DNA of 32,000 bases, taken from NCBI GenBank assembly GCA_963704755.1, contig OY969938.1:3390001-3422000 (forward strand), in the 5' to 3' direction. How positions within the stretch are numbered: the first letter of the stretch is position 1; each line of letters begins with the position of its first letter. The notes below the pieces were generated by a model. It made no database searches and was not told the origin of the DNA. It saw nothing but the letters and a program-made list of their open reading frames with translations. The DNA is from an uncultured Chloroflexia bacterium (GTDB lineage Bacteria; Chloroflexota; Anaerolineae; Anaerolineales; Anaerolineaceae). The position numbers and the translations under genes were made by a program. Positions 394 to 28,069 of the stretch are shown in pieces.

Positions 394-700
394 CAGGAAA
401 CGGATGAAGGGTTATGCGTCTGATCTGTTTTGTGTATTAGTTTGGCCAGTGCCCAATCCCTATTCCCGCCGGGGAGAGGCCAGGTGAGGGGCGCGGCCGG
501 CCGGCCAGGGTTTTGATATAAAGCAAGCGCATTCATTAACTGGCGTTGAAGAACGGCCTCGGTCTGGAGACCGGGCCGAACAAGGTGGCGTAGCCCGGCT
601 TTCTAAGCCGGGAGAACGCCGGGTGGGAAAAACCTCGGATTTGGAAGCTCGTTGTCTTTCTGATGGCCTTTTTAATCATTCGTGCTATCATTAATTAACA

Positions 701-2405: not shown

Positions 2406-4335
2406 ATGAGCACACCTCAAAAAGACCAGACTATTCTCGTAATCATTCCCGATCAGCAGATAACCTATCTCCTCGAGCGCGTTCTTCAATCGGCGGGGTA
2501 CACGGTTAACGTTGTTCGGGAAACCACTGAGGCAATCGAAAACCTGGAAAAGAACCTTCCATCCATGGTGATCCTCAGTGATGCAGTCGGTGACCAGAGC
2601 GGACTGGAAATCTCCAAGGACTTGCTGCATCGCTTTCCGGCCATCCCGGTTCTGCTCCTGGTTCAGAATCGATTCTCCGGAATTGTTACGCTCGGCCATG
2701 CGCATGGGGATCAGCGATTACATGACCCTGCCGCTGCGCTCGGACGATATTCTCAATTCCGTGCAGAATGGCTTGAGCAAATCGAAAAAATCGAAGGATT
2801 GGGTGCTGCTGGAATCGCGCCGGGCGACCGACCGGCTGCGCCGGCGGGTGGACGAGCTGGAAACGTTGAGCCACCTGGGCCAGACGATCACGGCTTCGCT
2901 GGATTCGGACGCGGTGTTATCCGCGATTGTGGATGCTTCGGTGGAACTGACCGGCGCGGAAGAAGGCAGCCTGCTGCTGCTGGACAATCAAACCGGCGAT
3001 CTATACATGCGCGCGGCGAAAAACTTCCAGGAAGACTTTGTGCGTACATTCCGCTTACCCATTCAGGATACGCTAGCCGGATCGGTGCTGCGCACCGGCC
3101 AGGCGGTGGTTCTGGATGAAAGTACGCCTCAAAAGATCAAAACCTCGTACCTGGTGCACGCCTTGATTTACGTGCCCTTGAAATTCAAGGAGCAGGTAGT
3201 GGGTGTTTTAGGTGTGGATAACCGCCACACACGCATGCCCTTTCAGAAACGCGATATCAACCTGCTCTCGACCCTGGCCGAATACGCGGTGATTGCCCTG
3301 GAAAACGCTGAATTGTATAATGCTACCCAGGCAGAGCGAAACAAGCTGGAGACCGTGCTGAAGAAGATCCAGGACGGGGTGATCGTGATCGACCAGCAGT
3401 CGCAGATTATTATGATCAACCAGGCGGCCGAATCGGCGCTCAACCTGAATATTGGCAACGTGAATGGGAAGCCCTACCGCGAAGTGTTCAGCCAGCCCGA
3501 ATTGCTGGAGCTGATGGATACCAATACACGCAGCCTGTCGAACCGTACAGAGCTCACCGTCGAGGATGGGCGCGTGTTTGCCGCCCAGCGGACGCCTATT
3601 GCCGACGTGGGTATTGCCCTGACCTTGCACGATATTACTTACCTGAAAAAACTCGACCGGATCAAGAGCGAGTTCGTCAGCACGGTTTCGCACGATTTGC
3701 GCTCACCGCTGACGGCCATCCTAGGCTACGCCGAACTGATCGAGCGGGCCGGCCCGGTCAATGAATTGCAGCAAGAGTTTATCCGCCGGGTACAGACCAG
3801 CGTGCAGAATATCACCCACCTGGTGGACGACCTGGTCAACCTGGGCCGGATCGAGGCCGGGTTCGATACGCGCAAGGAGAGCTTTGACCTGCGCCAGGTC
3901 TTCGAGCTGGCAACCGACAGCTTCCGCAAGGCCATCAGCCGCAAGAACAACCAGCTCGAAGTGGAGCTGCCGGACAATTTGCCGCCCTTCTATGGGAACC
4001 CGGTGCAGTTACGCCAGATGTTCGAGCACTTGCTGGATAACGCGGTGAAATATTCATCGCCGGGAGGCAAGATCACCGTGTATGGCGAGATGGAGGGGGA
4101 CCAGGTGATCATCCAGGTGAAAGACGAGGGAATTGGCATCCCGTCGGTGGACCTGCCCTTCATTTTCGACAAGTTCTACCGGGCGAGCAACGTCAATAAC
4201 GATGTCAACGGTACCGGCCTGGGACTGGCCATCGTCAAGTCGATCGTCGAATTGCACGAGGGCCGCATCTGGGTCGAATCCAACGTTGGTCAGGGCACGA
4301 CCTTTACCATCGTGCTGCCGATTGTGGAACAGTAA
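2406..4335 (+). CDS. REC-GAF-PAS-HisKA-HATPase hybrid sensor histidine kinase, reading frame disrupted near 2667-2675
   Basis: The receiver N-terminus from ATG 2406 (MSTPQKDQTILVIIPDQQ...MVILSDAVGDQSG...PVLLLVQN) continues in the frame of ORF 2578-4335 (DSPELLRSAMRMGISDYMTLP). That frame then shows GAF, PAS, H-box FVSTVSHDLRSPL, N-box LLDNAVKY, G1 DEGIGI and G2 GTGLGLAIV. The Met at 2578 is an ORF-caller artefact; 2578-4335 is the intact downstream frame. Confidence 0.8.
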
Positions 4336-4572
4336 GAGTGTCACGGTGATGCAGTGAGAAAGTGTCACCGTGATTCAGCTTGTAGGGTGCGTTGGTAACG
4401 CACCATTTACCTGGTCTGCATTAATATCTGGCAGCAACCTATGTTTGGCTTATGTCATTCCTACCAGGCGTCAGCGATGACAAAAGCTTCTCATCACTCT
4501 TGCTCCCGCCCGCGGCGCTGATCGGCTAAGCTGTTTGGAGACCTTTATTGGGTCAAATTTCGTATTGTTTGG

Positions 4573-4638: not shown

Positions 4639-5318
4639 TGGGTTTGAAATAGGCGCGGGACGTTTTATATCGTTTTGTTTTCATTCAAACTCTTTACCCG
4701 ATTTCCGCTGGCCTGTACGATGAGCGGTATTGGCGAATAATTTCGTGGCAACAAAACACAAAATCCGTCCTGCGCCGGATTGATTACCCCCTGACACGTC
4801 AACACCGAAGCACTGTAATACAGAAGCACTGCAATACCGAATCACCCCCTTAAAACAAGCCTCCGCTGGGGGCGGTGAAGAAACCCAGCGGAGGCTTTCG
4901 CCAAAGGAGGAGACAGTGATGAGCTTGATTGGAGGTGTCCAGTTTATGTGTCTCCAAGAACAACTATACTCAATTGTCAGGCATTTGAGTATGGTCGTTA
5001 ATCATCTATCCGGGCGATAATCCTCATATTCCATTTGCATAAAGTCATGCCATTCGTCCTGCCCGGCAGGTTTCTCGGGCGACAGGATCCGCAGCAATCC
5101 AAATGAGTGCAAAATGAAAGCGGTTTATTCGCGTAGGATAGCGCATCCAAAAGGACCCTGCGGTTGGAGATTTGCCCCAACAATTGCGTCGACTGGGCCG
5201 GTCGATTGGGCGGCCTGGCCGGCCCGAAAGGACCAGTTTTGCCTCGATCAGGCTGATTGGAGCGGTTCTGGCACGTTTATTGCACGTATCGGTTAAAAAA
5301 ACACCCTCCTGGGTTTGC

Positions 5319-5423: not shown

Positions 5424-6080
5424 ATGAATAGGAAAGCTTTCGCCCTGGTGCTGATCGCCGTTCTGGTCGGGATAAGCATGACTGCTTGTACCCGGTCGGC
5501 CACCAGCAAAAACCCAGCCGCTACATCCACATCTGAAATACCCTTCCCGGTTGGAACGCTGGATACGTCAGCCCGTGTGACGGAAATCATCGAGCAAACT
5601 AACGCTGTTCTGCCCACTGGTTTACCCACCGTTCAAACCGGCACAGGTGGTGAGGCAACTTCGATTGTCGTAGCGACCGTTGCGCCGACGGCTACGCCCA
5701 AACCGACCGCCACAGCGACTTTGCCGGCTATCCCGACCCTGGAACGCCCGTCTACGTACACGCTGCAAAAGGGCGAATGGCCGATTTGTATTGCCCGCCG
5801 CTACAACCTGGATGTCGGCAGTTTGCTGGCTGCCAATAACCTGTCCATGAATTCTCGGCCGTCAGCCGGTACCGTGTTATCTATCCCCAGCTCGGGCACC
5901 TGGTCTTCGGGCTCACAGCAATTGCTGGATCACCCGACCGATTACACCGTCCAGTCAGGTGACACCATCTATTCCATCGCCTGCGCCTTCGGTAACGTTT
6001 CGCCCGAGGGGATCATCGCCGCGAACAGCTTACAATCACCTTATACGGTGAGCGCCGGCAGCACGCTGCGCATCCCCTGA
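5424..6080 (+). CDS. LysM-domain lipoprotein (two LysM repeats)
   Basis: Signal peptide with a lipobox-like GISMTAC. Low-complexity T/P/A linker. Two LysM-type repeats: YTLQKGEWPICIARRYNLDVGSLLAANNL...GTVLSIP and YTVQSGDTIYSIACAFGNVSPEGIIAANSL...GSTLRIP. Confidence 0.85.
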   Translation: MNRKAFALVLIAVLVGISMTACTRSATSKNPAATSTSEIPFPVGTLDTSARVTEIIEQTNAVLPTGLPTVQTGTGGEATSIVVATVAPTATPKPTATATLPAIPTLERPSTYTLQKGEWPICIARRYNLDVGSLLAANNLSMNSRPSAGTVLSIPSSGTWSSGSQQLLDHPTDYTVQSGDTIYSIACAFGNVSPEGIIAANSLQSPYTVSAGSTLRIP

Positions 6081-15508: not shown

Positions 15509-15515
15509 GGAAGGG

Positions 15516-15545
15516 ATAAGGCAATAAGGCGACGAGGCAACGAGG
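15516..15545. repeat. Tandem octamer repeat (A/G)AGGC(A/G)A(C/T)
   Basis: Sequence ataaggcaataaggcgacgaggcaacgagg lies immediately after the LiaF-like stop. The same octamer family occurs at 15903-15968 (both arms) and, inverted, at 18261-18280. Confidence 0.7.
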
Positions 15546-15648
15546 ATGTAGAGTGGGTGAAGGGCTCGTAAAGGATGCTGGCGTATTACAAGCCGGCATG
15601 TTATATCGAACCTTGCCCGTAACCCACCATCCTGTCTGGAAAGCGCTG

Positions 15649-15706
15649 GCCCTCATCCTCCGGCTCCTTCTCCCGCAACTGGGGGAAGGAGTGCCTTGCT
15701 GCCGGA
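15649..15706. repeat. Diverged copy of the ccttctccc / gggaagg hairpin repeat family
   Basis: Sequence ccctcatcctccggctccttctcccgcaactgggggaaggagtgcc...gccgg resembles 328-393 and 4573-4638. A further relative is at about 15795-15840. Confidence 0.5.
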
Positions 15707-15902
15707 AGGTCATAATTGACCGGCTCGCTGGATTCACAAGCAAACAGGCGATTAACCAACGTCGATCTGTAAGCATAGGCATTTGTAGACCGGATTTCTT
15801 GCCCCTTCCCTCATTTTGGGGCAAGGCTGGGATGGGGGAATACGCCGGCAGGCAAAGGCATGTGTCGGCTAGCTGCGCTCCTCACCTGGCTGTAAAGTAA
15901 CA

Positions 15903-15968
15903 AGGCAACAAGGCAACGAGGCAATGAGGAAAGACGCTTTTCCTTATTGCCTCGTTGCCTTGTTGCCT
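15903..15968. repeat. 30-bp inverted repeat built from the octamer repeats; probable terminator of the HAD gene
   Basis: aggcaacaaggcaacgaggcaatGaggaaa, then a short loop (gacgc, or 6 nt depending on where the stem is drawn), then tttccttAttgcctcgttgccttgttgcct. There is a single G/T position in the stem. Lies 30 nt beyond the stop of the minus-strand HAD gene. Confidence 0.8.
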
Positions 15969-15997
15969 GATCCCCTCCTTACCAGGCCAACTGTCTC

Positions 15998-16931: not shown

Positions 16932-17759
16932 TCAGGGCTGGCTCGGGCAGCCGCCGAGCAGGCAGAATGGATCGATGGTCTGAAAGACCCCACTGACCCG
17001 CCACAGGCAGTACGTGCCCATCTCGTCCAGGCTGGCGGAGGGATCGTAATGGGCCATCGACGCGAAATTGGCTCCGGCCGGACCAACGCGGACTTCCAGG
17101 TGCAGGTGCGGGTCGAGGGCGTTGCCGGTCTGGCCTACCTGGCCAAGGCTCTGGCCGCAGGAGGCGTTATCGCCGCCGGTCAGGGAGGGGGTAGCGAGCA
17201 TGTGGCCGTACAAAACATACAGCGAGCGCGCTCCGCTGGCCGCGCTGGGAACGCTGTAGGCCGGGCAGGTCAGCGCGCCGCTGGGGAGCAGTTCGCTGAG
17301 CGGGGCCGGCAGGCCCAACGCGGATACCCAGGCTGGCGAGAGTCCGTCGAGTGGGGTTTCGACGATGACGGCGTTGCCATACGGGAAGCGATCCTGGATA
17401 ACGCCGGCGACCCGGCCGGACAGTATCGCCTGGACGGTCATGCCGCTCAGGGCGATGCGGTCGCTGGGGTTGAAGTCGGCCAGGTCCACGCCCTGGTGCG
17501 GGTCGTCGCTGCCCAGGGCCGGCGGGTGGTAGGGGTTGGCGACCTGGGTGGCGAGCTGGTCGATGCCGTAGCCGGCCAGGGCTGAACAGACCTGAGGCGC
17601 CGGCAGGCTGGTAGCGCTGGGCTCGGGTGTGGGGGTGGCGGCCGGCGCGGCCGTGGGGGTGCTGGTGGGGGTAGGGCTGGCAGGCTGGGCCGGCGCGGCA
17701 GTGCAGGCCGCCAAACTGGCCAGCAGGATCCATGCCGTGAGTATTTTGATGCGGCCCAT
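16932..17759 (-). CDS. M23-family metallopeptidase lipoprotein
   Basis: MGRIKILTAWILLASLAAC carries a lipobox. A P/T/A linker follows, then the M23 motifs HQGVDLA and PHLHLEVR. The ORF-track start at 17939 runs through a tandem repeat and is rejected. Confidence 0.85.
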   Translation of the reverse strand: MGRIKILTAWILLASLAACTAAPAQPASPTPTSTPTAAPAATPTPEPSATSLPAPQVCSALAGYGIDQLATQVANPYHPPALGSDDPHQGVDLADFNPSDRIALSGMTVQAILSGRVAGVIQDRFPYGNAVIVETPLDGLSPAWVSALGLPAPLSELLPSGALTCPAYSVPSAASGARSLYVLYGHMLATPSLTGGDNASCGQSLGQVGQTGNALDPHLHLEVRVGPAGANFASMAHYDPSASLDEMGTYCLWRVSGVFQTIDPFCLLGGCPSQP

Positions 17760-17804
17760 GGCATGGATTGTAACCCATCCCGTGGGGCGGAGGAAGAAGA
17801 TATT

Positions 17805-18040
17805 AACCACGGAGGCACGGAGGACACGGAGAAGAAAAAGATTTAAGTAGAGAAAGAAAAAACCACGGAGGCACGGAGGGCACGGAGAAGAAAAAGATTT
17901 AAGTAGAGAAAGAAAAAACCACGGAGACACGGAGGGCACGGAGAAGAAAAAGATTTAAGTAGAGAAAGAAAAAACCACGGAGGTACGGAGAAAAGAAAAA
18001 GTGACGGACGAAGAAAAACCACAGAGGACGGAGCATTCAC
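17805..18040. repeat. 56-bp tandem repeat: three near-identical units plus a degenerate tail
   Basis: Units start at 17805, 17861 and 17917: aaccacggaggcacggag(g/a)(g/a)cacggagaagaaaaagatttaagtagagaaagaaaa. A decayed fourth unit runs from 17973. Confidence 0.9.
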
Positions 18041-18343
18041 GGAGAGGATTTGTGGACAGTACGCCGGCGTTGGGTGCGTTTGAGGGCTGGTAGCCAGGGC
18101 GTTGGCAAATCATCGTCACGTTTTGCCGGCGCAGGCGTGCCTGGAACGCACCATTGCTGCGCTGGGATAATATTCCCGATGGGCGTTGAAGAACGACCGG
18201 TACCAACGGAGCGCATGAAGCCAATGGGCAGACCGGCCGGTGCTTTTTGCCTCCTCTTATCCTCGTTGCCTCGTTGCCTTCTTCACTACTCTCTACTCTC
18301 TAATCTCTCTTCTTTCCTCTTCCCCCGATAGGTTATAATTTTT

Positions 18344-24406: not shown

Positions 24407-25987
24407 TCAGGCCGTACGCTCGGCCGGGTTTTCCGGTTGGATATCCACCAGTGCACGGATCTCGTTATAGAGCGGTTTGAGCTGCTTGTACATCTTGGTG
24501 TACACCCGTTCGTATAGCTGGGTATACAACTGGTGGACCTTGGGGTTGGGTTCGAAGGTGTCCCCCGGGCGGGTCATGGCGTGCACGGCGCTGGGAAAGT
24601 CGGGGTGGAAGCCCAGCCCAACGGCGGCGTCGATGGCGGCGCCCAGGCCGGAAGCCTCGTACAGGTGGGGACGCGAGGCCGGCATACCGAATATATCGGC
24701 GGTGATTTGCATACTGTTCGGACTCTGGCTGCCGCCGCCGGCGACACGGATTTCCGTAATGGGGATACCGGTCCGGGCGGCGATCCGGTCGCGGCCCTCC
24801 AACAAAGCAAAGCCCAACCCTTCCAGGATAGCGCGGTATAAATGACCGCGGGTGTGTACATCCCCAAAGCCAATCACCGCCCCGCGGGCTTCCGGACCGG
24901 GCACCTTGAGGCCTGGCGACCAATAGGGCTGCAGCACCAGACCATTCGAGCCGGGCGGCACGTTTTCCAGCAGCTTGTCGAGCAATTCTTCCGGCTCGAC
25001 GTTGAGAATCTTGGCCTGCTCTTGCTCGTTCAGTCCGAACTCTTCCTTGAACCAGCTAACCATCCAGAAACCGCGGTAGATCTGGATTTCCAGGGTGTAG
25101 GCATGCGGAACGGCCGATGGGTAGGGCGGGATCAGCGGAATCGGCTCGACGTATTTCTTGTGGGTAATGTTGATGGTGGCGGTGGTGCCGTAGCTCAGGC
25201 AAGCCACGTTGGGATCCACACAGCCGGCGCCGATGACTTCGCAAGCCTTATCGGCGGCAGCGGCGATCAACGGCAGGCCGGCCGGGATGCCGGTGGCCTC
25301 GGATGCCTCGGGTGTAATTTCTCCCAGGACCGAGGCGGCCGGCGACAGGTCGGGCAGCAGGCCGGGATCCATGGGTACGGCCTGCCACTTCCAATCGGAT
25401 TTACTGGCCCAGTCCTGCTTTTTGTAATCGAAGGGGATGTAGCCCACCTGGCAACTGGTCGAATTGATGTATTTGCCGACCAGCCTGTGGGTCAGATAGC
25501 CTGAAAGCATCAGGTATTTATACGTTTTAGCCCAGATATCGGGTTGGTAGGTGCGGATCCAGTTGGCTTCCGCTTCGGCTTGCAGGTAAGCCACAGTCTC
25601 GCTCATGCCGGTGAGCGAAAAGGCCAGGCCCCAGAAGCCGCCGACCGGTTTTTGACCTTCGGTGCGGCGCTGGTCCAGCCAGACCATGGCCGGGCGCAAG
25701 GGGTTGCCGTCCCGGTCCAGGTTAATCACCGTGCTGCGTTGGGTGGTCAGCGCGACGCCGGCCAACCGCTCGCGGCTCTGGGGGCAAACCTGCCAGAGCC
25801 TTTGACAGGCCTGGCAAAGGCCGTCCCAGAAGACCTGGGGGTCTTGCTCGGCCAGGCCGGGCGCGGTGGAATAATACGGTTGGATAGGGATGCGGGTCTT
25901 GCCGATCAGGTTACCGGCGCCATCGAACAGTAGCGCTCGAATGCTTTGTGTGCCGTTATCAATCGCCAGGATCAAATCTTTGAGCAT
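24407..25987 (-). CDS. FGGY-family carbohydrate kinase
   Basis: N-terminal [18 protein letters not shown] is the FGGY phosphate-1 motif. C-terminal RVAGGGSQS. About 526 aa. Confidence 0.85.
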
Positions 25988-26070
25988 CCATGCCTCCCCG
26001 ATGATTTTAATCTACCCTCTCTTGTTATACCACAGCTGTAAGCGAATGGCTGTTAGCGGCTGGCGGTTAA

Positions 26071-27091
26071 CAGGTGTAGGTTGGGTTGCGGGCTCATTCA
26101 GAACATCGGCGATTTGTTGGATTGTGAAACATTCCAGGCTCTGCGGTGACCCAACATTGTGCTGGGTATTGCCGGTGTTGGGTTACGGGCAATACCTGGT
26201 GTGATAAACGCTCGACGAAAGAACCAACGCCAGAAAAGGGCCCGCAACCCAACCTACGAAAGCTAAACGCTAACAGGTGTAGGTTGGGTTGCGGGCTCAT
26301 TCAGAACATCGGCGATTTGTTGGATTGTGAAACATTCCAGGCTCTGCGGTAACCCAACATTGTGCCTGGGTATTGCCGGTGTTGGGTTACGGGCAATACC
26401 TGGTGTGATAAACGCTCGATGAAAGAACCAACGCCAGGAAAGGGCCCGCAACCCAACCTACGAAAGCTAAACGCTAACAGGTGTAGGTTGGGTTGCGGGC
26501 TCATTCAGAACATCGGCGATTTGTTGGATTGTGAAACATTCCAGGATCTGCGGTAACCCAACATTGTGTCTGGGTATTGCCGGTGTTGGGTTACGGGCAA
26601 TACCTGGTGTGATAAACGCTCGACGAAAGAACCAACGCCAGGAAAGGGCCCGCAACCCAACCTACGAAAGCTAAACGCTAACAGGTGTAGGTTGGGTTGC
26701 GGGCTCATTCAGAACATCGGCGATTTGTTGGATTGTGAAACATTCCAGGATCTGCCCGTAACCCAACATTGTGCCTGGGTATTGCCGGTGTTGGGTTACG
26801 GGCAATACCTGGTGTGATAAACGCTCGTCGAAAGAACCAATGCCAGGAAAGGGCCCGCAACCCAACCTACGAAAGCTAAAAGCTAACAGGTGTAGGTTGG
26901 GTTGCGGGCTCATTCAGAACGTCGGCGATTTGTTGGATCGTGAAACATTCCAGGATCTGCCCGTAACCCAACATTGTGCCTGGGTATTGCCGGTGTTGGG
27001 TTACGGGCAATACCTGGTGTGATAAACGCTCGTCGAAAGAACCAATGCCAGAACAGAGCCCGCAACCCAACCTACGAAAGCTAAACGCTAA
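26071..27091. repeat. Five-copy tandem array of a ~204-bp highly self-complementary unit
   Basis: Units start at 26071, 26274, 26478, 26682 and 26887, with lengths 203, 204, 204, 205 and 205 bp. They differ by a handful of substitutions and 1-nt indels. Each unit holds four copies (two forward, two inverted) of a GGGTT(G/A)CGGGC core. Confidence 0.95.
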
Positions 27092-27237
27092 AAGCCAATA
27101 GCTAATCGCGACCCGCAAACCGCAATCTTCTCCGCCATTGCCTGGGCGTTCCCACGCGGTTGCAGCGCCTGGGCAATGGCCTCGGCAATTTTGCGGGTAT
27201 TGCCGTAGCGGGAATAATAAACGACCAGCGTATTCAT
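27088..27237 (-). pseudogene. Flavodoxin gene remnant (N-terminal ~30-40 residues only)
   Basis: GGAG Shine-Dalgarno then ATG 27237 gives MNTLVVYYSRYGNTRKIAEAIAQAL. This fits the flavodoxin FMN-phosphate loop pattern (V-V-Y-x-S-x2-G-x-T-x3-A-x2-I). The frame then runs into repeat-derived sequence and stops after 49 aa at the edge of the tandem array. Confidence 0.65.
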
Positions 27238-27306
27238 TTTGAAGAACTCCTGTTTCTTTCTAATCGGTACGGATCGCCCAGGGGAAGGGAGATCCGTGGG
27301 GCGGGG

Positions 27307-27936
27307 TTATTCCTTTGACTGTTCTGCCAGGGAACTCGATAACATCAGCCCGTTGAGCGCCAGGTCCGCCACCTGAGCGGCGCTCAGCCAGGCCTTGCCT
27401 TCCGGGTCCAGGTTGGAGGCCGTACCCAGGTAAATGGTCATAATCAGCGCAGCCATGGCCTGCGGTTCGACCGGGCGGAAGACACCGGCCTGGATGCCGG
27501 GCTGTAAAATTTGCCCGGCAACGAATTGAAACATGGGCTGGTAAATCCCGAACAGGTAGGTTTTAAATTCCAGGTGCGGGCCATGGATGGTGGTAAACAT
27601 CACCTGGGCGAGCGGGAGGTGTTCGCGGACAAAGTCAAAGCCGGCCGCGAAAAAGGCTTCCAACCGGCGGGCGGGATTGTGTTCGCGCTCCACCCGGGTG
27701 GTGATGTACTCCAGGTGCAGGCCGGCGGTCGCATCGAGCAGGGCGAGCAAGAGATCGTGTTTGCTGGCGAAGTAGTTGTACACAGTGCCCTTGGCAAAAC
27801 CGGCCGAGGTCGATATGGTGTTGATGTTGGCGCCCAGGTAGCCGGCGCGGGCAAACTCAAGGGCGGCTGCGTCCAGCAGGCGTTGGCGCGATTGGTTCAG
27901 CGCCTGGTCGTGGTCTTCACTCTTTATGCGGGCCAA
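27307..27936 (-). CDS. TetR/AcrR-family transcriptional regulator
   Basis: N-terminal HTH LLDAAALEFARAGYLGANINTISTSAGFAKGTVYNYFASKHDLL. TTG start with an AAGGAGG Shine-Dalgarno. Confidence 0.9.
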   Translation of the reverse strand: MARIKSEDHDQALNQSRQRLLDAAALEFARAGYLGANINTISTSAGFAKGTVYNYFASKHDLLLALLDATAGLHLEYITTRVEREHNPARRLEAFFAAGFDFVREHLPLAQVMFTTIHGPHLEFKTYLFGIYQPMFQFVAGQILQPGIQAGVFRPVEPQAMAALIMTIYLGTASNLDPEGKAWLSAAQVADLALNGLMLSSSLAEQSKE

Positions 27937-27948
27937 GTTGCCTCCTTG

Positions 27949-27980
27949 AATAATATGGGTGGGTGGTCACCCATATTATT
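27949..27980. promoter_or_regulatory. Candidate TetR operator (13-bp perfect inverted repeat)
   Basis: aataatatgggtg-ggtggt-cacccatattatt lies between the divergent tetR and EamA genes. It overlaps a minus-strand promoter candidate: TTGACT (28003-27998), 16-nt spacer, TAATAA (27981-27976). Confidence 0.55.
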
Positions 27981-28069
27981 ACAAAAATCACTGCCCAAGT
28001 CAATAGGAAATTTGGGACCGGGCAAATCCGGTCCACTCCGGCGGGTTCCATGATAAGATTGCGCCTGCT

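Follow-up and report, generated by a model that had tools for sequence, protein, structure and literature searches.

A tandem array of GTAG-tagged palindromic modules in an Anaerolineae genome, probably a REP/BIME-like cluster of non-coding repeat DNA

What kind of element could account for the five near-identical units, each of about 204 bp and rich in inverted repeats, that lie between a gene for an FGGY carbohydrate kinase and the remnant of a flavodoxin gene in an uncultured Chloroflexia bacterium (Anaerolineaceae; contig OY969938.1)? We analysed them within a 32-kb window (positions 3,390,001 to 3,422,000 of that contig, numbered here from 1), starting from a first-pass annotation that had delimited the units and named the four repeat arms of each one, in order, F1, R1, F2 and R2. 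Tandem Repeats Finder agreed with it on the tandem arrangement (period 204, 5.0 copies, 97% matches, score 1897). Each unit turned out to be an inverted doublet of one 82-nt module that carries the tetranucleotide GTAG at one end. The array is very probably a non-coding cluster of palindromic repeats made by tandem duplication, and we favour, on balance, its interpretation as a lineage-specific cluster comparable to bacterial interspersed mosaic elements (BIMEs), built from an oversized module of the repetitive extragenic palindrome (REP) kind and representing non-coding repeat DNA. Its G+C content is 51.7%, against 60-61% in the flanking genes. The components of the array are the following:

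26068-27091, no strand: whole array, five tandem units or ten modules in alternating orientation (Tandem Repeats Finder)
26069-26271, no strand: unit U1, 203 nt, with a derived R1 arm, GCGGTGACCC
26272-26475, no strand: unit U2, 204 nt
26476-26679, no strand: unit U3, 204 nt
26680-26884, no strand: unit U4, 205 nt, with the R1 arm in its ancestral form, GCCCGTAACCC; forms a single hairpin of ~90 bp (folding)
26885-27089, no strand: unit U5, 205 nt
26687-26768, plus strand: module with GTAG on the plus strand (A of U4; alignment A1); the others at 26076-26156, 26279-26359, 26483-26563 and 26892-26973
26789-26870, minus strand: module with GTAG on the minus strand (A' of U4; alignment A1); the others at 26176-26257, 26380-26461, 26584-26665 and 26994-27075
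26769-26788, no strand: 20-nt centre between untagged module ends (19 nt in U1)
26871-26891, no strand: 21-nt linker joining neighbouring units at their GTAG ends, GAAAGCTAAACGC (right flank) followed by TAACAGGT (left flank)

The modular nature of the units emerged from an alignment (A1) that combined the five stretches from F1 to R1 with the reverse complements of the five stretches from F2 to R2 and with a solo copy located elsewhere in the window (see below), making 11 modules. All ten array modules are colinear in it, 5'-GTAG-GTTGGGTTGCGGGC-49 nt-GCCCGTAACCCAAC-A-3', so that a module opens with a GTAG tag, after which two complementary 14-nt arms enclose a 49-nt interior; GTAG itself (G1, T2, A3 and G4) is unchanged in all 11 modules, the decayed solo copy among them. 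The distance from F1 to R1, put at about 60 nt in the first-pass annotation, measured 49 nt. An inverted-repeat search recovered the complete 82-nt halves of the units as inverted copies with 71% complementarity, both within a unit (for example, 26687-26768 against 26789-26870) and across a junction (26584-26665 against 26687-26768). The two module types have nearly identical arms. Compared in inverted orientation, their interiors agree at 25 of 49 positions, a score that 5 of 20,000 shuffles reach, versus 11 of 49 in direct orientation. The ten modules alternate strictly, with untagged ends facing each other over the 20-nt centre and GTAG ends over the 21-nt linker; a doublet with its untagged ends facing spans 182 bp and is bounded by perfect 18-bp inverted repeats. 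The 18-mer GTAGGTTGGGTTGCGGGC is present in five exact copies per strand (ten in all, 0 mismatches, versus 0.07 expected from shuffles), the inner arm TGTTGGGTTACGGGC and its complement occur at the positions previously assigned to them, and the 14-nt core site has 20 near-identical occurrences within 1 kb. GTAG/CTAC had been described on the F and R arms in general, which is correct for the outer arms but not for the inner ones, which are untagged.

This alternating layout of one module also accounts for the competing helices of the units. Three mutually exclusive pairings had been proposed, and the inverted-repeat search recovered all of them: F1 with R2 (18-20 bp, perfect), R1 with F2 (11 bp in U1-U3 and 15 bp in U4-U5), and R2 of one unit with F1 of the next (23 nt, 91%). 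They follow simply from an array of a single module in alternating orientation. A further pairing, between ggtattgcc and ggcaatacc, does exist as a hairpin, but it competes with R1:F2 because it overlaps F2, and the '1-3/2-4 pseudoknot' topology deduced from it is unsupported; at the second doublet locus described below, the partner segment is altered (AEP for AIP) with no visible compensating change. As single-stranded DNA, a single module forms a 14-bp stem with one G.T on the GTAG strand and leaves GTAG unpaired 5' of the stem, whereas the opposite strand has a C/A mismatch in place of this G.T. The doublet folds on either strand into one imperfect hairpin of ~90 bp. In the case of U4, RNA folding gave -102.1 kcal/mol for the plus strand (z -8.5) and -96.8 kcal/mol for the minus strand (z -9.3), and folding as single-stranded DNA gave -55 kcal/mol (z -8.0).

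Related copies were found at two other loci. One of them, in the same window, was detected by nhmmer (E = 0.0021 over 15546-15648) with a hidden Markov model (HMM) trained on the five units alone:

15548-15629, plus strand: decayed solo module, GTAG followed by AGTGGGTGAAGGGC, ~49 nt and GCCCGTAACCCACCA, in the intergenic region 15509-15997 (nhmmer, alignment)

The tail arm of this solo module, GCCCGTAACCCACCA, has 1 mismatch in 15 and its head arm is degenerate; the two carry GTGGGT/ACCCAC in place of the TTGGGT/ACCCAA of the array. The recurrence of an arm motif noticed earlier at about 15615 is a relic within this module, while the one listed at 18068 was not shown to be related. A dispersed intergenic family of octamers (AAGGCAAC / GAGGCAAT / AAGGCGAC) also occurs in the window, with 10 matches versus 1.3 expected (15518-15540, 15894-15969, 18258-18280); one octamer run directly adjoins the solo module at 15548, and two inverted runs at 15897-15965 would form a hairpin of ~26 bp.

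The other locus was revealed by a composite query made of all the long stop-free translations of the array, which had one match among 5.8 billion proteins: P0121, a 206-aa protein of the same genome, not encoded in the window. P0121 holds the translated F1/R1/F2/R2 arms twice and in the same order (RRLGCGL / LPVTQ / NVGLRA / PATQPT), with arm spacings of ~45, 14 and 48 nt that match those of the array and with loops of <=30% amino-acid identity. About 51 residues separate its doublets, equivalent to a linker of ~153 nt and a period of ~318 nt with at least two copies, and the arm substitutions of the second copy (LTVTQ, NVRLRA) are not mutually compensating. Since P0121 repeats all four arms and is not encoded in the window, it represents a spurious open reading frame (ORF) through a second tandem array elsewhere in the genome. 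The proposal that the array is a local amplification of a dispersed, GTAG-tagged palindromic element is borne out by the existence of the solo module and the P0121 array outside it.

Searches in other genomes were negative. P0121 as query matched only itself. The pattern TGGGTTRCGGGC-N35-65-GCCCGYAACCCA had four matches in 185,579 species genomes (GTDB), all unrelated palindromes in other phyla, and three in JGI metagenomes, likewise unrelated and without similarity past the arms, in collections that do not include the source genome; the module HMM, applied to these pattern matches, found only what the pattern had already selected. The 15-mer arm had 59 single chance matches in IMG/VR, the best of which, a 20-mer, falls within coding sequence of L066. 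Two units had no blastn match in PLSDB plasmids or GenBank phages, the arm sequence retrieved 0 papers in a full-text literature search, and neither nhmmer nor a generic scan for GTAG-palindromes detected anything in the ~84 kb of sequence that surround the orthologous kinase genes of the closest relatives (L009-L011, L071-L074). The window also contains two intergenic hairpins preceded by GTAG and of canonical REP size, at 590-612 (plus strand; GTAG-CCCGGCTT-tct-AAGCCGGG) and 4382-4404 (plus strand; GTAG-GGTGCGTT-ggt-AACGCACC), the latter resembling the start of the module arm (GTAGGGTGCGTT versus GTAGGTTGGGTT); with ~0.5 such hairpins expected by chance, they are not significant alone.

The differences between units give an idea of how the array was built. 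The 14 variable sites set U1-U3 apart from U4-U5, with 3-4 differences among U1-U3, 6 between U4 and U5 and 6 between U3 and U4. The earlier impression that neighbouring units are the most similar is therefore right for the tight group U1-U3 but not for U4 and U5, which are no closer to each other than U3 is to U4. The main lesion lies in the tail arm, where U1-U3 have GCGGT and U4/U5 GCCCGT. This had been described as a 1-nt insertion in U4 and U5 that lengthens the R1:F2 stem; the 1-nt indel and the 15-bp stem are real, but a substitution accompanies the indel, and the U4/U5 state is the ancestral one and that of U1-U3 derived, as GCCCGT is likewise found in the partner module and the solo copy. 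That U1-U3 share this derived lesion suggests that damaged arms were propagated by unequal exchange and were tolerated. As for the first duplication, the linker GAAAGCTAAACGC-TAACAGGT consists exactly of the right flank of the array (GAAAGCTAAACGCTAAAAGCC...) followed by the left one (...GGCGGTTAACAGGT), and the two meet at a TAA(c/a)AG microhomology, so the doublet would have been duplicated together with its flanks. This points to an origin of the array by tandem duplication of one doublet with ~22 nt of its own flanks, followed by expansion, and not by repeated insertion, which is disfavoured because it would not carry the flanks along. The initial event may have occurred at the TAA(c/a)AG microhomology, and unequal crossing-over and gene conversion between the 204-bp repeats would have followed. 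The P0121 array, which repeats a doublet with ~153 nt of flank, represents an independent event of the same kind.

To which known class of repeats does such a cluster belong? REPs are palindromes preceded by GTAG with an overall size of 20-50 nt (PMC8266576), stems of 5-13 bp and loops of 2-20 nt (PMC3733652, Table 1), and the REP-associated tyrosine transposases (RAYTs, or TnpA-REP) read GTAG and the stem imperfection on them (PMC8266576). Head-to-head dimers predominate and GTAG repeats have been reported in Chloroflexi (PMC3733652), and singlets, doublets and clusters coexist (PMC8266576, PMC3733652). Our array shares with the REPs and BIMEs of enterobacteria and pseudomonads the GTAG directly 5' of the palindrome, a stem imperfection that makes the two strands unequal, the alternation of REP and inverted REP (iREP) with two kinds of short linkers, the reiteration of dimers with flanking DNA, the intergenic and non-coding location, and the joint occurrence of singlets, doublets and clusters. 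The unpaired GTAG and the strand-specific flaw of the stem match what RAYT/TnpA-REP enzymes recognise and therefore favour an element similar to REPs or to REPINs (REP doublets forming hairpins). Arms that remain identical while loops drift to ~50% identity suggest, in turn, a propagation that depends on the recognition of the ends. Like REPINs (Bertels and Rainey 2011, PMC3116915), the array is made of inverted doublets with a short spacer that fold as one long hairpin and are conserved between loci; REPINs, however, form large dispersed populations, mostly of single doublets, and have a single-copy RAYT, whereas both doublet loci here are tandem arrays. The terminal inverted repeat (TIR) families of the RAYT-like 'TIRYT' enzymes (PMC3733652) are also similar in being longer, non-REP inverted repeats, moderately abundant, arranged as singles, dimers or clusters, and in some cases partly self-complementary, but they are defined by a flanking TIRYT gene (PMC3733652), which the window does not contain, and our array arms carry GTAG. 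In its tag, its alternation and its clustering the array works like a REP/BIME cluster, but its size is not that of a canonical REP. Its host also differs, belonging to the Anaerolineae and not to the enterobacteria or pseudomonads.

If the cluster is REP-like, its modules would spread, or would once have spread, through a trans-acting enzyme that recognises the GTAG-tagged hairpin arms, the most natural candidate being a RAYT-like single-strand transposase of the HUH/Y1 type encoded outside the window. By analogy with known REPs, such RAYT-like mobilisation is conceivable, and we propose it only tentatively. Were the array read through from the TetR/flavodoxin promoter, its hairpins would represent RNA barriers or RNase III targets that separate this operon from the FGGY kinase gene. 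Transcription of the array would give no more than a passive barrier of hairpins, and the cluster may equally be neutral.

Several observations weigh against the assignment to REP-like elements. The module exceeds the published size range (82 nt in all; stem 14 bp, loop 49 nt), and the known loci are only three (the array, the solo module and the P0121 array) as compared with the tens to thousands of REP/BIME loci. As the first-pass annotation had stated, the window has no RAYT gene: none of the 28 ORFs of the 32-kb window scanned with Pfam encodes a transposase (RAYT included), an integrase, a reverse transcriptase or a Cas protein, and no RAYT/REPtron unit was seen among them. The codons of P0121 would allow a GTAG without proving it, and arm mutations persist both in its second copy and in U1-U3, so that individual copies are not strongly constrained. 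Moreover, GTAG could alternatively be read as G, a TA target duplication and GG, as in a classical miniature inverted-repeat transposable element (MITE).

If the REP-like reading holds nonetheless, the REP/REPIN/BIME organisation would not be limited to the 20-50-nt palindromes of Proteobacteria but would extend to an 82-nt module in Anaerolineae, which would provide a concrete substrate to seek the cognate Y1 transposase in Chloroflexota. A bolder and rather improbable extension is that an undescribed RAYT-like single-strand transposase of Chloroflexota acts on the modules and tolerates or requires their 49-nt interior, each module being a 'giant-loop REP' able to carry a short cargo, with doublet clusters perhaps kept because their ~90-bp RNA or DNA hairpins insulate neighbouring operons; with such an enzyme, the REP/RAYT paradigm would reach a new phylum-level lineage and a new size class. 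More practically, the array breaks short-read assemblies, as in the Logan contig discussed below, and yields spurious ORFs (the 206-aa P0121 and others of 80-86 aa here); it marks a site of gene decay and rearrangement and opens no new biological question by itself.

Palindromic MITEs such as Correia/NEMIS, ERIC/IRU and RUP are non-coding and 100-200 bp long, have terminal inverted repeats and can form long imperfect hairpins; they are dispersed as single insertions with target duplications and, when transcribed, can affect mRNA processing. The array could accordingly be viewed as a classical MITE moved by a DDE transposase, in which a 182-bp doublet with 15-bp TIRs (GGTTGGGTTGCGGGC) and a TA duplication (G-TA-GG / CC-TA-C) was later duplicated in tandem. 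The perfect 18-bp terminal inverted repeats, the TA immediately flanking the 15-bp repeat on both sides, and the doublet as the conserved unit in both arrays would all agree with this, and so would the size, the lack of coding capacity and the long imperfect palindrome, which are typical of Correia- or ERIC-type elements. However, the modular head/tail structure with GTAG and the tandem organisation set the array apart from palindromic MITEs, since a simple TIR element does not predict colinear modules each with a tagged and an untagged end, and the solo locus has not a doublet but one 82-nt module, with its GTAG retained. The TA is itself part of GTAG/CTAC, and a single duplicated flank is common to every copy in the array; furthermore, no insertion sequence with these ends exists in the window, and plasmids, phages and viral contigs gave no match. 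We thus regard a MITE as unlikely. Folding stability, extreme on either strand, together with G.U-compatible changes on the plus strand and the maintenance of the arm identities (outer G/C, inner A/T) at the second locus, would suit instead five structured RNA genes or one multi-domain RNA switching between alternative helices, an option that the first-pass annotation had left open. Yet equal stability on both strands is expected of any DNA palindrome, and Rfam had 0 matches at gathering scores over the whole window (at E <= 10 it listed only miRNA-precursor-like hairpins, with 15-25 bits versus thresholds of 42-107). A scan found no excess of promoter-like or terminator-like sites in the array, in line with the earlier statement that the units lack a convincing promoter or terminator of their own. 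RNAalifold on the five units predicted 69 pairs, 0 of them compensatory, with a covariation term of +0.12 and 5 broken cells, although units this similar make covariation uninformative as a test of structure. With arms that decay in U1-U3 and in the second P0121 copy, and with nothing related around the kinase of the nearest relatives (76-77% FGGY identity) or in the collections searched, we find a structured RNA quite improbable.

The array might also act at the DNA level as a set of protein-binding sites, whether centromere-like, nucleoid-organising or operator, with the 14-nt core repeated 20 times as the site. So many near-identical cores within 1 kb, their conservation while the interiors diverge and the TetR-family gene next door are compatible with this function. 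It is nevertheless very improbable: apart from this ordinary TetR there is no linked gene for partition, replication or dedicated DNA binding, the gene in which the array lies is decayed, and the second array differs in spacing. A TetR operator array in particular was rejected, as the tetR promoter region, where the operator would be expected (27937-28069), contains no match to the core motif at <=3 mismatches. Finally, a long-read assembler might have inflated a single doublet to five copies, given that two of the unit differences are 1-nt indels, that the count of five comes from the assembly and that a short-read Logan contig stops at the array. This independent contig (L008, from ERR11571143) is 99.94% identical over 4.9 kb, has the same junction between flavodoxin remnant and array and the same ORF, and ends 30 nt inside the array, which is how a real repeat behaves. 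The 14 differing sites are nested (U1-U3 versus U4-U5), a pattern not expected of random errors, the junction of right and left flanks in the linker means that at least two copies must exist, and there is a second tandem array in the genome. An assembly artefact is consequently the most remote of the explanations considered here.

We also considered a variety of coding and mobile systems. No reading frame is open across the array: stops occur in every frame, the longest open stretches have ~86 codons and the ORFs have no Pfam match. The earlier observation that a stop interrupts these ORFs in every unit was confirmed, the unit lengths of 203-205 nt shifting the frames; a protein-coding repeat was rejected on the same grounds, although 204 is divisible by 3. 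An HTH-like (helix-turn-helix) peptide, FTIQQIADVL, had no Pfam match, and tandem small proteins or type I toxin-antitoxin repeats do not fit with frames that shift by unit and with a hydrophobic arm-encoded stretch devoid of a start codon. The exclusion of a CRISPR-like array stands: the repeats alternate in orientation, the 'spacers' are not unique but are themselves repeated at 97%, and Pfam found no cas-like domain in the window. ACCCAAC and GTTGGGT, read directly from the sequence, fit both attC box consensuses (RYYYAAC / GTTRRRY), but an integron attC array or CALIN (cluster of attC sites lacking integron-integrases) was discarded in view of the perfect 14-18 bp helices without bulges, the sites 49 nt apart and the absence of ORF and integrase. 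Retron or DRT (defence-associated reverse transcriptase) non-coding RNAs were set aside, with no reverse transcriptase among the 28 window ORFs scanned, and so were viroid-like or ribozyme satellites, with no match to a ribozyme model. No tRNAs were found.

The neighbouring genes all lie on the minus strand, in the order TetR, flavodoxin remnant, array and FGGY kinase:

27307-27936, minus strand: TetR-family regulator, upstream of the flavodoxin remnant and on the same strand (Pfam)
27088-27237, minus strand: N-terminal flavodoxin remnant, 49 codons, with its stop at the array edge (Pfam Flavodoxin_5/_1/_3)
24407-25987, minus strand: FGGY carbohydrate kinase, with 81 nt between its start codon and the left edge of the array (Pfam)

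The flavodoxin remnant matches only positions 1 to ~30-34 of profiles of 143-160 positions (Flavodoxin_5/_1/_3), and the rest of the gene is gone, because only ~80 nt separate the array from the kinase start; the loss of most of this gene may have accompanied or preceded the growth of the array. A TGgTATAAC extended -10-like motif (complement of 26024-32), seen by eye and absent from the list of the promoter scan, precedes the kinase. The FGGY kinase is 100% identical to a protein of a 4,871,623-bp NCBI/ENA contig, from which P0121 also comes; its next relatives, at <=77% identity, are annotated as Anaerolineae/Chloroflexota. The region upstream of this gene is a synteny breakpoint among the nearest relatives (L009, L010, L071 and L072-L074 compared with window 24407-27300), where the upstream genes are MgsA-type AAA or WD40/NB-ARC, never TetR-flavodoxin; an empty site cannot be reconstructed because of this lack of conserved synteny. 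Downstream of the kinase, a PAS-GAF-HD gene is common to the window and L071.

The window harbours two other short tandem repeats. One, with a 16-nt period (4807-4845, 2.4 copies, 86%), lies in a 1.1-kb intergenic gap that separates a histidine kinase (2578-4335) from a LysM protein (5424-6080). The other has a 56-bp period (17805-17990, 3.3 copies, 96% identity) and is composed of CACGGAG(G) heptamers with an A-rich tail behind them. The long ORF at 16932-17939 (minus strand) overlaps this repeat with its predicted 5' end; the M23 peptidase domain of the ORF is far downstream, and its start is probably over-extended.

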